A stretch of 64,000 nucleotides of DNA from Sedimentisphaerales bacterium (lineage in GTDB: Bacteria; Planctomycetota; Phycisphaerae; Sedimentisphaerales; Anaerobacaceae). Position 1 is the stretch's first letter; the number at the start of each line of letters is the position of its first letter. Where the stretch lies: contig OY970194.1 in the NCBI GenBank assembly GCA_963708075.1, forward strand, positions 5,152,001 to 5,216,000, given 5' to 3'. Shown in pieces: positions 39,502 through 59,936 of the stretch. The notes under the pieces were generated by a model. That model had not been told where the DNA came from. It worked only from the letters and a program-made list of their open reading frames with translations, and did not search any database. The position numbers and the translations under genes were made by a program.

Positions 39502-39912
39502 GAAACGCTTCTCCTTCTACTTCCCAACACGTATCCACAAGGCCTTTCCCATGATATCCCGCTGGCCGGCCAGTTCAAGGTATTCTCCGTGGAAGGAAGA
39601 AGGGTCTTCGAGAAAGGGGAAGATGTCGCGTACTTTTTCCAGACGAGTCGGCATAAGTGTCACTCTGGCAAAGGGTTAGGGGAGGAGTGTGAAGCATCAA
39701 GTGTGAAGTTTGATGTTTGAAGTTTGAAGTGTGAAGCCGGAGGCTGGGTTTTCTCTGCGGCTTGGCGTCTCTGCGTGAGGTAATGTTGGTTCCGGCTGAC
39801 AGCCGGGCTGGGTTGATCGGCGGTGGCATTTCCTCCGTGGTCTCTGTGGTGAAGAAATCTGGCTTCCCAATCAAGTCGGGAATGACAGGCGCGGGCCGTG
39901 GCTCTCAGGTTC

Positions 39913-53301: not shown

Positions 53302-54999
53302 TCACCACTCTGGACCAAAGGACACGGCATGGGGGGTTCTCTGGATAGAAATGTAACTAGTCAATGGCCAAGAATGAGGGGTCTGCCGCCGTCCCCAAAT
53401 GGCGACCCCAGGCAACCAGAGAAACTTGACGGCTTTGAAGTCTTTTCGTGAGCCCTCGTACTCAAAATCCACAGAGGTGACGACATCGCCGAGCTTTGCG
53501 CGGTTGCCACATACAAGGTCGGGTAGGCTTATCTCAGTGTTCCACACCAAGTGGGGTAAGGATCGCCTTATTCTCTGCAGCGTTTGGTCGTCAACGGTGT
53601 TTTCGTCCCTATCGTGGTGCGAACCCAAGTGAGCCATCAAGTCATTCGCACTTACCAAGAATGTGCGGCAGGCCAGTGTCTTTCGACCTTCGATCAACGC
53701 TCTCATCCACTTGTGTCGAGCAAGAGACGGCACGAAATTGTCGATAAGATCAAGGATGCCCTTGAGGACAGCAAAAGACACGTGTTCCGCATCCATGCCC
53801 CTAGTCCTGACTCCCTTGGGGACAAACGTAATCGCCATGCTTGGGTGAATGTTCGCGTTGACGGCGGGCAAAATAACATGATGAAGATCATCTGTGTTCA
53901 GGGTGCGGTACATCCCAAAGTTATCATCGTTGATCAGGAAGTGACATACCCATGCGGAGGTTGGAATATACTCTTTCGATGCAAGTTCCCGGTAGCTGAT
54001 TCCGGCTTCAGGTCCCCACCTATCAGTGTTGCGAGTATGGCCTAACACCGTCACAACGTGAAGCAACTGCTCGAGTTCTCCAAGTTGTGGACGTTGTATG
54101 CCTAGTATTGTCGGGCAGCAGGATTCAACATATGGATAGATCGATGCCGCAGCATCAACGTCAGGCTGCTTGACGAAATCCTCCTGCAAGACGCGCAGCC
54201 CCAATCGCTTTGCTACCGTGACAATCTGTTCCACCGTCAGACCTCGGGGTCGCTGGCCAGGCGGATCGACCGGAGAGCGACCAAGCCGTCGGGCTTGGGT
54301 CCGATGGTCGATGCCAAGAATCTCGTTAATTCGTTCGCTCGTTAGTTTCTTCCTCTGTCGCCCTGCTTTCCGTTTAGACAAATTGTTGACGGCCATTTGG
54401 GCGGCGGCGTGGGCGCATACACTGGTTAACGAATTCTGCTGTGCGAAATAGCATCCGGCGATGCGGAACTCTTCGTGACGATTCGGAGTGCCTATGATTG
54501 TGACAAACTCATTCCAGCAGTGGTAGTAGTAGTTCATCACCTTGTTTTCGCACAGGCTGCCGTTATCTGCGCATTTGTACTCTCCCGGGAACGTCACGAC
54601 AGCCTCGTAAATATAGGTCATGGGCGCGACGGCCGGGGAATGATGTCGAAGGAATGAGATGGTTATGAGAACAACATAGCCAAGTATACCCTTCTGAGCC
54701 TCTGGCGTATGCCAATCTCCCCTGGGTATATTTGCGAAGAAAGTAAGGCGTTTCGCCTTGCATGATGTGATTCCCCCAGAACGTCGTCCAATAGCGGAAA
54801 ACTCCGTGAGAAGCTCGTCGTTTGGGGCGAGTTCCTCCTCAACGAGCCATTTAGCTTTCATCTTTCGCATGAGCGTACATACTCTATGGAGGGGCATCCG
54901 GTTAGGCCCCTCGCACATGTTTCGGATGTACTCATAGAAAGATATTTGCGTGACATCGGTTGGGGGTGCTGGCAGGCGTACAGCGTAGACGTCGTTCAT
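53302..54999 (-). CDS. Hypothetical protein with papain-like (C39-type) Cys-His-Asp motif set
   Basis: QQNSLTSVCAHAA, HVVTVLGH, FLINDDNFG in papain-fold order; RBS GGAGAGG. Confidence 0.6.
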   Translation of the reverse strand: MNDVYAVRLPAPPTDVTQISFYEYIRNMCEGPNRMPLHRVCTLMRKMKAKWLVEEELAPNDELLTEFSAIGRRSGGITSCKAKRLTFFANIPRGDWHTPEAQKGILGYVVLITISFLRHHSPAVAPMTYIYEAVVTFPGEYKCADNGSLCENKVMNYYYHCWNEFVTIIGTPNRHEEFRIAGCYFAQQNSLTSVCAHAAAQMAVNNLSKRKAGRQRKKLTSERINEILGIDHRTQARRLGRSPVDPPGQRPRGLTVEQIVTVAKRLGLRVLQEDFVKQPDVDAAASIYPYVESCCPTILGIQRPQLGELEQLLHVVTVLGHTRNTDRWGPEAGISYRELASKEYIPTSAWVCHFLINDDNFGMYRTLNTDDLHHVILPAVNANIHPSMAITFVPKGVRTRGMDAEHVSFAVLKGILDLIDNFVPSLARHKWMRALIEGRKTLACRTFLVSANDLMAHLGSHHDRDENTVDDQTLQRIRRSLPHLVWNTEISLPDLVCGNRAKLGDVVTSVDFEYEGSRKDFKAVKFLWLPGVAIWGRRQTPHSWPLTSYISIQRTPHAVSFGPEW

Positions 55000-55254: not shown

Positions 55255-56072
55255 CTCTCCACCCTTCGAGCAAAATGGACATTCCCCTACCTTAATTTCT
55301 GTTCAAACTACGACGACCGGACCGCGCTGTTCATAGCGGTTTCTCCGGCTATACCTAGCGTAAAACGCGGGCGTCCCGCAGCCAAAACCTATATGGTAGG
55401 AGCTTTGCACGCCCGTGAACAGAAAAAAATCCTCCTCTGTGCCGGATGCACGCCAGCCAAAGCGATCCGTCAACCAAGGTTGCAGATATCCTCATTCAGC
55501 ACACACCCGCTACATATAGGTGGTCAACCTAGTCGCACTTCTATAACCTGTATGTCGGCCTTCTGCAATAGGTCAAGCAGTTTTTTCCCATTTTTTTGAA
55601 AAGTTTTTTTGTGTCTAAAGGAAACCTCCTCCGACCACCATGGATCTAAGCGGGTCAACATGACAAAGAAAGGCGACTCCCGAGCCAGTTTCTATCCGTC
55701 TCTACCTAAATGATACGCGGACACGGACGCAAAGTCAAGAGCATACCACCAGCATACATCTGGTTCGCGCCAAGCCCTCCCGATGCACACTCGGAGGGCT
55801 CGTCGAGTCCATCCCCAATCTCCAGGGGAGCAGCGTCCAAGTGTAAGTTATCGGTTAACAATTGTGAGTAGGCGCCTACGGGCCGACGAAGGTGTTGTTG
55901 TCGAAGGCGGGGCGTTCGATGCCGCGGACTCTTTGGCCGGTGGACATGGCCGGTTGGAGTGCGGAGTGCGGAATGAAGAGGCAGGGGGTCAGGGCTCGGG
56001 GATCAGGGGGCAGGTTGGCAGATTCCTTCTCCGTGGCGAGAGAATCAGTTGTCGGTTCCCGGCTGCTAGTTG

Positions 56073-56414
56073 TCAGTCGGTGGTCGCTTCGGCGGGCTCT
56101 TGTTTGCGGATGTCGTCAAACTGGTTGATCTCGACGTCGCCCTGTGGAAAGTGCGCGATGATGCGCAGTTCCCCGCCCATGGCGGCGATGAATCGTCGAA
56201 GCGTGCTGACGTACATGTCGGACTGATGCTCCAGCTTGGAGATGGCGGCCTGGTTCATCTTCAGCACTTCAGCCAGCTCCTGTTGCGTCAGGTGCATCGC
56301 CTGGCGCAACTCCTGGAGGGCCATTTCCGAGTACATCTCGGCGGTGCGTTTGCGAATTCGCTCCCGGCTCTGGGGCGACATCTTATCAACAAGATTCTTA
56401 AACGGCTTTGCCAT
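56073..56414 (-). CDS. XRE-family HTH regulator (HigA-like antitoxin), orphan
   Basis: LQELRQAMHLTQQELAEVL..NQAAISKLE..DMYVSTLRRFIAAMGGEL. Confidence 0.9.
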   Translation of the reverse strand: MAKPFKNLVDKMSPQSRERIRKRTAEMYSEMALQELRQAMHLTQQELAEVLKMNQAAISKLEHQSDMYVSTLRRFIAAMGGELRIIAHFPQGDVEINQFDDIRKQEPAEATTD

Positions 56415-56418
56415 CAGC

Positions 56419-56460
56419 ATAACCTATCAGTTATATAACTTATGAGTTATGTCTTGTCAA
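56419..56460 (-). promoter_or_regulatory. Promoter overlapped by two tandem palindromic operators ATAAC-N6-GTTAT
   Basis: TTGACA at 56455-56460 (minus strand); palindromes at 56419-56434 and 56435-56450. Confidence 0.75.
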
Positions 56461-56809
56461 GTGGTTTTTTGCTCATTTTGTCTACAGCCGTTGCTCCAGG
56501 ATCTTGGTAAACACGCCGCACGCACGAATACCCGGTATTATGAGCAGCCCGTGGGGCGGCGACAAGGGCAAAGGGCCAGGATTTCGCGGGCACTATGCGG
56601 CAGAGTGTCTGCCGGTGGACATGGCCGGTTGGAGTGCGGAGTGAGAAAGGCGAGTGTGAAGTTTGATGTTTGAAGTTTGAAGTAAGCGAGCGGCAGGGCC
56701 GGGTCTTCTCTGCGGCCTTCTGAATCTCTGACTTACGAATTACGATCTATGATTCGTTCTGGAAATCTGCGTTGCTAACTCGCAACAACTGAAAAAGATT
56801 TCCAGATCT

Positions 56810-58344
56810 TCATGCGGCGGCTTTGTTAAGTTGTTCTGTGGTGGCCTTTTGCGTTAGCGAGATGGTAGCGATGATTTTGGCTCCGTTCGCGGTCAGGCGA
56901 TACTTGCGAGTCTTGGGCAGACGGCGGATGATCTTGTGCTCTCGCAATAGCCGCAGCAGATACGTCACCTTCGCCGAGACCTCCTTGGCAGGACGGTTTG
57001 GATAGAGACGGCCGGCAATATCCCGATTGCGGAAATCCCCGACCAGTCCACAGGTCGCCACCGCCGCCAGCAGTTGCTGGTCCGCCTCGGACCAGGGTCG
57101 CAGCGCCCGGATCGATTTGCCCCTGCGGATGTGACGCCGGCAGATGGGCGAGAACCACTTCTTCCACTCGCTCACTGGTGTCGAGCTTGGCCAGGGCTTC
57201 GAGGTAGCGGTCATTGACTTGTTGCGAGACTTGACTGCGGGCGTATAAGTCCACGATGCCCTTGCTCATGGGCAGCATCCTCTTGGAACCCTGGGGATCG
57301 CGTTCGGACCGGCGGTAGACACGAAAGGCCCGAGCGTTGTTGATCGTGCACTCCGTACGCAGGATCGAGCCGGCCTTGTCATAGACCTTGACGGAGTTGG
57401 CGTGTGCCTGGTGCTTGACCCGAATTCCTTCGGGACGATCCCGGTAACTGCTGATCACCTCCTCCTGGCAGTTGGGATACAGACGCTTGCCGAGGAACCG
57501 CAGCACATCCTTGCTGCCAAAGGCGATCATGGAGCCACGCACCAGTTGGGGATAGATACGGCCCAACGCCTTGGGATCATCAAAGGCGATATCCGTCGCC
57601 CATTCGGTTCTCATGACTGGTCCAGTAGTAGTGCAAAGGAAAACCGGCAAACATCGTCTCGTGGGCCGGATTGAGGAATCGTGCGATGCGGCCGAACTGC
57701 CGGCACCAATCGGTGCGGTGCAGTTGGTCCATCAATGCCTGAGCCCGTGGAAAATCAGCCATCCAGGGAAAGCAGTTGTCACACCGCCGGTACGCCAGAT
57801 GCTCTTGATCCATCCTCTTGGCCAGCCATTCGCGGCCGTTCATCCACATCTGAATGGCAAAGGGAAACCACGTTTGGATGCGGGCGCCCATGAACCCGAA
57901 GTAGGCATCGTACCAGTAATGGTACAGGTGCATGCACTTGCCTTGAAACAGCTCCAAATCCAGCGTCTTGGCCTGGCGATTCTTATGAAGCTTGTAGGTC
58001 ATGCATGGCTCAATCGTACGCAGAATGCAAATCAGTCCCTCCCGGATGCCATCGCGGGCAGCGATGTCCAAAGCGACTTGTTCCTTATTGGTTCGGCTGG
58101 AGTGCAGGTACACATTGGGTCGGCCGGCCTGTTCGGCCTTGGCCACAGAGGCCTGGATCAGTTGCGCCGTCTTGTCCAGGGCGTACTGCTTGAAGTCCTT
58201 CATGAGAATGCTGCGATACGCCAGGTAGGAACACATCCCCGCCAGGTTGGCCACCAGGCGAAGGGTCCCACGAAAAACGATGCGGTCCCAGCCGCTCAAA
58301 ACCCCTATAATGTGCTTCTTGTGCTTCTCCATGAACGATTGCAT
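56810..58344 (-). CDS. ~510-aa putative transposase/replication-initiator-like protein with C-terminal winged helix; two frameshifts
   Basis: ORFs 57580..58383, 56826..57650 and 56810..57214 join after removing one base near 57610 and one near 57152. Motifs GWDRIVFRGT, EWATD, KVYDK..ILRTE, FRNRDI...YLLRLLR...RKYRLT; RBS AAGGAGG. Confidence 0.7.
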
Positions 58345-58429
58345 GGCATCCTCCTTGAAAAAACAGGTTGTCAGGTACAGCAACCAGCATAGCAGGGATG
58401 GATGCCTTTTTCATTCCAGAGGCTTGTGA

Positions 58430-58643
58430 TCATCCTTTTCCTTTTTGCCCTCGATAGGCTTGGGGCAAAAAGGAAAAGGGTGACCATCGTGGACAACAAG
58501 CGGGGCCAGCAGCGTCCACGGAGTGTGAGCAAGAAAAATGACAGGCGAGTCACGAGGGCGGATTCAACATCGCCGAGGATCGCGACTCTCGCTGGCGGCC
58601 CAGACTCGTGACCGAGACCACGCCTGGCATGTTCTTGCCACAC
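58430..58643 (-). ncRNA. Candidate structured non-coding leader (RNA or ssDNA)
   Basis: Stems 58430-58450/58463-58483 (20 of 21 bp), 58488-58494/58514-58520, and nested 58523-58535/58632-58643, 58542-58547/58621-58626, 58549-58556/58605-58612. Confidence 0.4.
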
Positions 58644-58979
58644 GCAGTAGCTGCGGTCGAACGAGAACGCACATGCGATACGCCTTTGGTTGCGGCCGAA
58701 GGCCGCGCCAAGTCCATCTGCGTTCATCTGCGGATGATGATCGGTAGTCGGTAGCCGGTTGGCGGTTGTCGGTTGAAACCCCTTGGTGTTTTTCTCCGTG
58801 GTCTCGGTGTCCTCCGTGGTTAAGAAAGCCTGGATTCCCGCGTTCGCGGGAATGACATTGTTGAAATCCGTGGTCATCCGCGTCAATCCGTGTCCAGGAA
58901 CAAGCGGTGTGCGAAGCACACCCTACCGGCTGTCGCCATTGCCGTGTCCTGACCCCTTATCGGCGTTCATCAGCGTTTA

Positions 58980-59873
58980 TCAGCGGTTCCGTTTTCTCGG
59001 TGTCCTCTGTGGCAATTTATTCGTCTTGCGTCTTGTCTTTGCCTTCTTACCTTTGGCCTTTTGCAGGGCGGCCGGTGTGCGGGCGAATGATGATTCGCCC
59101 CTACGCGGGTGTTGGACTCTTTTCCTGCCGGTGGATGTGCCTTTCTTATCTTCTTTCCTTCCTGCCTTCTTCCGTTCTTCCTCGCCGCCGGCGTAGACCT
59201 CCTTGCGGCGGTCGGGGGGCCATTCTTCGGGGAAGTTGAGATTGGCGAACTCGCCGAATAATTCCACCGCTTTGCGGTCGTAGGCGCGGGCGGCCTCGAT
59301 CTCATCCTTGTAATAGCCGAGCCAGATGTCCTTGCCCATGATCTTGATCTGGGCGTACCACTTGTGGCGGTCCTTCGAGTAGCCGACGCCTTTGTATTTG
59401 GATAGCGAGCCGCGCTTTTTGCGCTGGTTGCGCTGGTTCTCGTGGCGCAAACAGAGGCGCAGGTTCGGGCGGGTGTCGTCGAGCTTGTTGTGGTTGAAGT
59501 GGTCGACGATCTTGCCGGGCGGGGCCTGCAGGATCTGGCGATGCATGTAGACGATCTTTCCCTTCTCATTGCGTGCGGCGTATCCGTTCACCGAGGACCA
59601 GGTCCACCGGCTGAGCCAGTCGTAGTCGGCGGCGTCCACGTAGGCGTACAGGCCGTCGCCCAGCGGGATTCGCCGGGCGTCGCCTTCGGGCTCGGGCGGC
59701 CTGGGGCGATAGTTGCGGCAGGGGCCGCCGGAGGGTACGGGCCTCATCCGGCCGAGCGACTCCGGGTGGTTCGCACACGCCGGACGGCTCGCAAAACCCG
59801 TGACAAAGCCCTGCATCGTCTGGCATCGGTCCCAATACGCGTACACGCAATTGTGACAGTTCTCAGTCGCCAT
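58980..59873 (-). CDS. HNH endonuclease-AP2 domain protein with Cys-rich N-terminus
   Basis: AYVDAADY, MHRQIL...VDHFNHNKLDDTRPNLR (HNH_3-like), SKYKGV...WYAQI...LGYY..EIEAARAYD (AP2); N-terminal CxxC...C...C. Confidence 0.88.
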   Translation of the reverse strand: MATENCHNCVYAYWDRCQTMQGFVTGFASRPACANHPESLGRMRPVPSGGPCRNYRPRPPEPEGDARRIPLGDGLYAYVDAADYDWLSRWTWSSVNGYAARNEKGKIVYMHRQILQAPPGKIVDHFNHNKLDDTRPNLRLCLRHENQRNQRKKRGSLSKYKGVGYSKDRHKWYAQIKIMGKDIWLGYYKDEIEAARAYDRKAVELFGEFANLNFPEEWPPDRRKEVYAGGEEERKKAGRKEDKKGTSTGRKRVQHPRRGESSFARTPAALQKAKGKKAKTRRKTNKLPQRTPRKRNR

Positions 59874-59936
59874 GATCTCTCCCTTTCCATTGGTCCGCAA
59901 CGTCACTCGTCGGGCGCCCTTCGGCCCAACGTGACT

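Follow-up and report, generated by a model that had tools for sequence, protein, structure and literature searches.

A multicopy insertion sequence in a Sedimentisphaerales bacterium with a predicted Rep_trans-like tyrosine nickase and a candidate DNA guide

The single-strand and rolling-circle transposases covered by a review are all HUH enzymes, and Rep_trans proteins are listed in the part of that review cited here for plasmids, phages, and ICEs only (PMC5714925). The catalytic Tyr of Rep_trans lies in a β-strand, unlike that of HUH enzymes (PMC5714925), and the Rep_trans domain has a TBP-like fold, with the active site of RepDE formed by D46, D142, Y191, and E214 (PMC13107129). The Rep-Arvir proteins (RepSNJ2, DUF7845) are described as archaeal virus and plasmid replication initiators in which a TBP-fold nickase is followed by a MarR-like winged helix and an extra C-terminal domain, with the cis site just downstream of the gene; the sections of that source cited here report no transposition (PMC13107129). 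Two families of HUH-dependent elements offer further points of comparison. IS91, IS801, and IS1294 have neither terminal inverted repeats (TIRs) nor target duplication, and their two ends are unlike, with a target motif beside the downstream (ori) end and a palindrome at the upstream (ter) end (PMC13181058). Their bottom strand has been implicated in movement, and a functional bottom-strand circle has been described (PMC13181058). IS608, of the IS200/IS605 family, inserts precisely at a target that is read by pairing with a guide in the element, is kept in the flank, and can be reset by changing the guide (PMC5934647).

The element described here lies in a 64,000-nucleotide stretch of DNA (the window; positions 5,152,001 to 5,216,000 of contig OY970194.1, assembly GCA_963708075.1), and its features are collected in Table 1. 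Compared to IS91, it shows the same general layout, whereas IS91 transposase is an HUH Y2 enzyme and no element-encoded guide is described for IS91 in the passages cited (PMC13181058). With IS608 it shares precise insertion, a target that stays in the flank, and probably the choice of that target through pairing with the element, but IS608 TnpA is a small HUH Y1 protein and the protein of this element has 510 aa and no HUH motif; the guides of IS608 are 4 nt long and lie 5′ of subterminal hairpins at both ends, whereas the candidate guide here has 2 nt and lies 3 nt from one end (PMC5934647). The protein resembles Rep_trans (PF02486) and MOBT relaxases in its TBP-like fold, in the Tyr placed in a β-strand, and in the order of an acidic residue, xExAxD, YxK, and RxE. 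It differs from them in that it has no Pfam match, Glu replaces the second Asp, the Tyr-to-Glu spacing is 10 aa rather than the 23 of RepDE, a subdomain is inserted, and a MarR winged helix is fused; moreover, it is carried by an insertion sequence and not by a plasmid, phage, or ICE. The predicted nickase followed by a winged helix and the site just downstream of the gene recall Rep-Arvir, whereas the present element is bacterial and multicopy. Unlike DDE insertion sequences, it lacks TIRs and target duplication, and unlike IS110/IS1111 with their bridge RNA, it has no DEDD recombinase match in Pfam and its long leader is absent from most relatives.

Table 1. Features of the insertion sequence (copy A) and its flanks, in window coordinates
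Feature	Positions	Strand	Remarks
Whole insertion sequence, copy A	56771..58711	-	Limits common to the three copies; register set by empty sites and by the repeat period
Putative transposase gene, 510 aa intact; aa 1-390 form a TBP/Rep_trans-type domain, aa about 391-510 a MarR-type winged helix	56810..58344	-	ATG at 58344, TGA at 56810-56812; split over three frames in the window
Extra base 1 (frameshift)	57153		Absent from copies B and C
Extra base 2 (frameshift)	57608-57610		Absent from copy B, present in copy C
Downstream end, about 40 bp, ori-like by analogy with IS91	56771..56809	-	Candidate 2-nt guide at 56774-56775
Target half beside the ori-like end, reading GCAGAT along the gene strand	56765..56770	-	56769-56770 can pair with the guide over a 3-nt loop
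Upstream (ter-like) hairpin	58686..58711	+	GCGGCC-GAA-GGCCGC core at 58692-58706, outer TTGG/CCAA stem
Upstream target half	58712..58733	-	10-bp-period microrepeat closing with the conserved -1 C (58712)
Long structured leader of the window subfamily	58345..58685	-	
Stem arm of the initial annotation, flank DNA outside the element	56758..56768	+	

Searching the genome (G000; 7.5 Mb in a single contig) at the DNA level returned three near-identical copies with different flanks: copy A in the window, copy B (L002), and copy C. Sequence common to all three runs from 56771 to about 58713, and the sole differences inside the alignment are two single-base insertions, both present in copy A and only the second in copy C. 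In copy B the gene is unbroken and encodes 510 aa, as the initial annotation had foreseen on repairing the two insertions. The base at 57153 is missing in the contigs of 3/3 public runs covering that position, and that at 57608-57610 in the contigs of 4/4; one public contig covers 56765-58713 with no mismatch and two gaps. This comparison drew on contigs of four runs, the best of which is possibly derived from the source sample. Because copy B is intact and the public contigs lack both bases, both frameshifts are most likely assembly (consensus) errors. Copy A measures 1,941 bp as assembled, and the intact copy 1,939 bp. That this is a real insertion sequence, probably intact, is close to certain.

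The element is mobile, its ends are precise and asymmetric, and the target is not duplicated. Its copies have variable flanks (3 copies here and 22 full ones in genome G132, each exactly 1,700 bp, a count that leaves out one split copy), which agrees with the mobile element that had been proposed. The absence of TIRs and of a target duplication, claimed earlier for the window copy, is borne out by the G132 copies and by empty sites. The limits first proposed, 56758-58706, had to be replaced by those of Table 1, where a 2-bp AC ambiguity at the end of copy A was settled from family data. They had included a 3′ stem-loop as an element end, which was rejected as a feature of the element since its left arm lies in flank DNA outside the shared sequence, where copies B and C have different bases; the 11-bp inverted match behind it does exist and folds in copy A (z -3.8). 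In the window subfamily, a subterminal ATCTG-GAAATCT (56795-56807) has its complement in the common target CAGAT(TTC) (56758-56769) and may provide a longer pairing with it; this segment is absent in other clades.

Insertion sites have the form C^NNRR, the caret marking the junction (here C^GCAGA), and often lie within tandem microrepeats of 7-10 bp. The 22 targets in G132 carry C at -1 (21/22), A at +1 (22/22), C or T at +2 (20 and 2), a purine at +3 (22/22), and A at +5 (22/22); about two thirds of these sites have a similar motif 9-10 bp upstream. The A at +1 in all 22 insertions argues that the target is chosen at insertion and not through later survival. A four-unit tandem array in G132 holds full elements in two units, a 170-bp mini-element in one, and nothing in the fourth, and this empty unit gives the exact join C^AC. 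All three copies in genome G458 lie inside another small repeat, the empty members of which show the CTAA core once. In G000, the microrepeat register that fits insertion without duplication was counted 18 times and the alternative registers 0, 0, and 2 times, and this fixes the limits of the window copy; together with the empty sites, these counts led to the rejection of target duplications of 2 bp or of 9-10 bp. A blind comparison of reading frames across joined flanks gave little information, as only one locus (L056) clearly favored the exact join. Downstream of copy B (G000:C1 below 4224041), the flank starts with TT, against the target rule, and opens with a small hairpin; a later deletion or an off-target insertion is possibly the cause.

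Two repeat contexts of these sites were recorded as side observations. At L293 (G132:C1:983300-990600), the array units are about 205-215 bp long and each ends in a target microrepeat; the first unit is abutted by what resembles the 3′ end of a group II intron. At L185-L211 of G458, all three full elements lie in a 170-bp repeat that has inverted repeats at its termini and contains one to four CTAATAC units, whose varying number may reflect slippage or nickase activity.

On the gene strand, the layout runs from the target C through a GC-rich hairpin and AACCAA to an end about 40 bp past the stop codon. The GCGGCC-GAA-GGCCGC mini-hairpin noted earlier is real and occurs family-wide, and throughout the family it prefers folding on the antisense strand (+ in the window); no family-wide hairpin was found at the downstream end. 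About 350 nt precede the start codon in this subfamily, whereas most relatives have about 80-105 nt. Strong structure was predicted for the 373-nt leader (z -6.15); it holds a hairpin with 24-bp arms (58427-58486) and another, at about 58345-58406, which buries the ribosome-binding site and by this reading probably limits expression from read-through transcripts. A search of the leader against Rfam gave no match at the gathering score and only sub-threshold miRNA hairpins, and the covariation term of a five-sequence alignment was slightly positive. A role of the leader as a guide RNA was rejected, as most relatives have no such leader and similar leaders occur in elements with different targets.

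In G000, hairpin ends number 25 and downstream ends 13. In six cases the two kinds of end lie 59-193 bp apart and form gene-less mini-elements, the smallest of about 65 bp; such non-autonomous versions have 65-200 bp and keep only both ends. A target-type microrepeat lies within 400 bp of 12/25 hairpins in G000 compared to 1.4% of random positions. The mini-element pattern is present in only 1/131 family genomes. Direct head-to-tail joints of the two ends were seen at four loci (L157, L222, L225, and L231). Other remains include a lone hairpin end of the same family near 39811 (-) in the window, for which no downstream end was found, and a remnant of a second, short-leader subfamily member near G000:C1 5137583 (-), with a broken 5′ gene fragment. 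In one clade (L263-L292, genomes G055 and G182), a perfect palindrome spans the downstream junction, and the 52 and 15 pattern matches per genome are mostly mini-elements.

The neighborhood of the window copy has features of its own. An HNH_3 and AP2 gene (58980-59906, -) adjoins the hairpin end and has 38 tblastn matches in G000; copy B also adjoins an HNH-AP2 paralog, and 6/38 paralogs have a hairpin end within 1.5 kb. Co-mobilization of this gene was rejected, as copies A and B adjoin different paralogs, 53% identical, out of the 38. On the other side, two 38-nt direct repeats, 95% identical (55936-55973 and 56611-56648), flank a lone HTH_37 antitoxin-like gene (56073-56420), upstream of which no partner toxin gene is evident. 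A 565-aa ORF (53302-54999, -) has no Pfam match and contains a CAHA segment possibly reminiscent of papain-like peptidases.

The predicted structure of the protein points to a nickase of Rep_trans type. AlphaFold2 models reached a pLDDT of 93 over the full length and 96 for residues 1-390. Residues 391-510 match winged-helix proteins of the MarR type (Z 8-9.9), whereas residues 1-390 best match TBP (Z 8.2-8.3, rmsd 3.7, 176 aa). The nearest enzymes are RepDE (4CWC/4CWE; Z 6.9-7.0, rmsd 4.8, 178-179 aa) and RepSTK1 (4CIJ; Z 6.6-6.8), which are middling matches, with rmsd values of 4.5-4.8 for the Rep proteins. In Foldseek the best E-value against the PDB was about 4e-3, with none under 1e-3, and a viral match, A0A345MNV4, had an E-value of 2.3e-4; this protein is described as an inoviral Rep_trans protein (PMC13107129). 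No DDE, HUH, recombinase, or RT fold is among the matches listed, where Rep_trans initiators stand as the nearest enzymes behind TBP. The earlier reading of the protein as a non-HUH, Rep_trans-like nickase is thus supported at a moderate level (Z 6.6-7.0, rmsd 4.5-4.8, Foldseek E about 4e-3).

Conservation follows the same pattern. The motifs HETEWATD, SVKVYDK, and ILRTECT and the C-terminal winged helix, all read from the repaired ORF at the outset, are present. E247, Y321, R329, and E331 are invariant in 104/104 aligned relatives, D20 is kept in 100/100 ungapped rows, D251 in 103/104, and K323 in 97/104; the invariant Tyr, Arg, and acidic residues persist at 30-45% overall identity. Y321 sits in β-strand 316-323 of the model, and the structural alignment begins at model residue 13 and RepDE residue 39, which would place D20 on D46 if it is ungapped. 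There is no conserved HUH motif in the family: H139, followed by Y141, is found in 70/104 relatives, and only H469, in the winged helix, is near-invariant. For the catalytic domain, Pfam gave no match with pieces of the window or with 25 homologs, no match to PF25227 (DUF7845) being listed, and the Rep_trans HMM had none genome-wide either. NCBIfam and PDB-sequence searches of this domain gave no match, PHROGs matched the winged helix only, and the ESM Atlas gave unnamed clusters in one search and no usable match in another. The protein is Rep_trans-like in fold and motifs, yet without a match to the HMM, and it is not filed as a Rep_trans member. Based on fold and conservation, it is likely a Rep_trans-like tyrosine transposase, in which Y321 would nick DNA and hold the 5′ end, D20, E247, and E331 would bind metal, and the winged helix would bind the subterminal end sequence.

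The hairpin at the upstream end may carry information on the strand that moves. In 28 distinct hairpin ends, the non-standard pairs comprise 54 G·T pairs on the antisense strand versus 2 on the sense strand, and a GNA loop is formed by the antisense strand in 18/28 hairpin sequences and by the sense strand in 0/28. Nicking of the antisense strand is favored because of this asymmetry and the IS91-like layout, and the antisense strand is somewhat likely to be the moving one. It would be nicked at the downstream junction, the tyrosine-linked 5′ end would pass to a target 3′-OH aligned by the 2-bp guide, and transfer would stop at the upstream GNA-loop hairpin. No clear case of read-through of the upstream end was found in the 22 G132 copies, with one tandem array among them. 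Since read-through of the IS91 type is reported at just 1-14% (PMC13181058), this count does not discriminate. No end-to-end circle joint is listed in the contigs of the four public runs.

The bases next to the downstream junction suggested how part of the target may be chosen. For the window subfamily, junctions were placed at a constant distance from an anchor sequence; at element position -4 and target position +1, the 32 distinct sites obtained in this way carry C/G 21 times, T/A 7 times, C/A 3 times, and C/T once (copy B). The two positions are complementary in 28/32 sites (Fisher p 4.6e-5, overstated because the sites are kin), and position -2 predicts +1 with an equal p, so this set alone is confounded. 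In a wider set of 130 distinct junctions from six anchors, a few false matches included, -4 is complementary to +1 in 115/130 (shuffles: mean 58, maximum 74) and -5 to +2 in 112/130 (shuffles: mean 65, maximum 85), counts whose independence is overstated because the sites are kin; complementarity to +1 was 11/130 from -2 and 97/130 from -1. Four pairings occur, namely GC with GC, GT with AC, AT with AT, and AG with CT. The AT register was set by the head-to-tail joints, and that of CT, ambiguous within the 4-bp CTAA core, by homology of the upstream hairpin end. An AGG-ended clade (30 loci) was excluded from the count, as its long palindrome gives another pairing.

The rule is obeyed by 29/39 distinct end 9-mers and by a copy on a Paraburkholderia plasmid, and the differences between sister mini-elements in G000 are compensatory in the same way. 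On the antisense strand, the three C/A exceptions become G·T wobbles, whereas 11 G/T sites at -5/+2 become mismatches; copy B, with TT at +1 and +2, violates the rule. From this covariation, base-paired targeting through the element end is probable. Element bases -5 and -4 would pair with two target bases by the cut in a stem of 2 bp that closes a 3-nt loop; the target would be specified in part by the element DNA, with the remainder (-1 C, RR, and +5 A) recognized by the protein. The reading favored here as a whole, at a probability of roughly 0.55, is an autonomous insertion sequence, mobile in single-stranded form through a tyrosine nickase of the TBP/Rep_trans fold, with targeting guided by the element.

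The same enzyme and guide could also act by peel-and-paste, as in IS200/IS605, with a strand excised as a circle at the replication fork and the donor resealed, without rolling-circle synthesis. Such a course would account for the precise ends in 22/22 copies, with no flank shared past the hairpin end except in one tandem repeat array, and for the head-to-tail end joints, and base-paired target choice is described as a hallmark of IS608 (PMC5934647). However, the first two bases at the hairpin end often mismatch the guide (CT in G132, TT here), which would leave the circle joint of those elements without guide pairing; a hairpin at the downstream end is not a family-wide feature, and the relatives of the enzyme are replication initiators. 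We regard peel-and-paste as rather unlikely. The complementarity itself might arise without pairing, if each lineage has a Rep-like protein with its own target, and the element end only looks like the opposite strand of that target, as a small dyad recognized by protein. The confounding by lineage is real, with -2 predicting as well as -4 in the subfamily, 15/130 sites violate the rule, and the stem would be just 2 bp. Against this stand the four different complementary pairings, the occurrence of both end types among elements with closely similar C-terminal protein stretches and among the sister mini-elements of G000, and the C/A exceptions, all three of which become wobbles on the antisense strand. 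Reading by protein only is judged improbable.

Two further explanations, both highly unlikely, concern the role of the protein. It might be a non-catalytic, TBP-fold DNA-binding passenger or regulator of an element that is moved by another enzyme, as its top fold matches are TBP and MarR proteins and a plasmid relative is annotated as a regulator, but it is the only gene of the element, its Tyr, Arg, and acidic residues stay invariant in spite of the overall divergence, and the end sequences track the protein family across distant genomes. The element might instead be a tiny integrating replicon in which Rep drives autonomous rolling-circle replication in the manner of Rep-Arvir, with the chromosomal copies as by-products. 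Such a replicon would fit the shared domain order of a nickase and a MarR winged helix (PMC13107129), whereas the lack of an integrase or any other gene, the dozens of chromosomal copies with gene-less mini-versions, and the record of phages and plasmids argue otherwise: the protein has no match in 50,697 phage records and matches only large plasmids of 0.2-2 Mb, in 10 records. One of these plasmid relatives carries the annotation 'ArsR family transcriptional regulator'. Two pattern matches on viral contigs proved unrelated to the element.

Relatives of the protein are numerous. Among 8,000 candidates scored, 3,308 are relatives; most of them are unnamed and sit on contigs about 2 kb long, as collapsed repeats would, and clustering at 50% identity gave 5,689 clusters at E-values up to 1e-3. 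The protein was found in 19/401 genomes of the phylum, 23/251 of the order, and 16/47 of family f39. Close relatives occur in planctomycete MAG records, and unnamed ESM Atlas clusters with relatives include Acidobacteriota, Actinomycetota, and Pseudomonadota. No description of the element family was found in the open-access papers and preprints that the search covered.

Tentatively, and at slightly less than even odds, the family may represent a widespread, undescribed class of bacterial insertion sequences with a TBP-fold nickase as transposase and a site partly picked by two terminal bases, in which a one-base change in a 65-bp mini-element would reprogram landing and the mini-elements would make up a share of the REP-like intergenic repeats of planctomycete genomes. 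Thousands of family proteins are labeled hypothetical or as ArsR/MarR regulators, so current annotation misses the family. Being scar-free and having 65-bp ends, the element lends itself to direct tests. If the assignment is true, a transposase of the Rep_trans fold would mean that a replication initiator gave rise to transposition on a separate occasion, and a DNA guide independent of that of IS608 would be a case of convergent evolution of programmable targeting.
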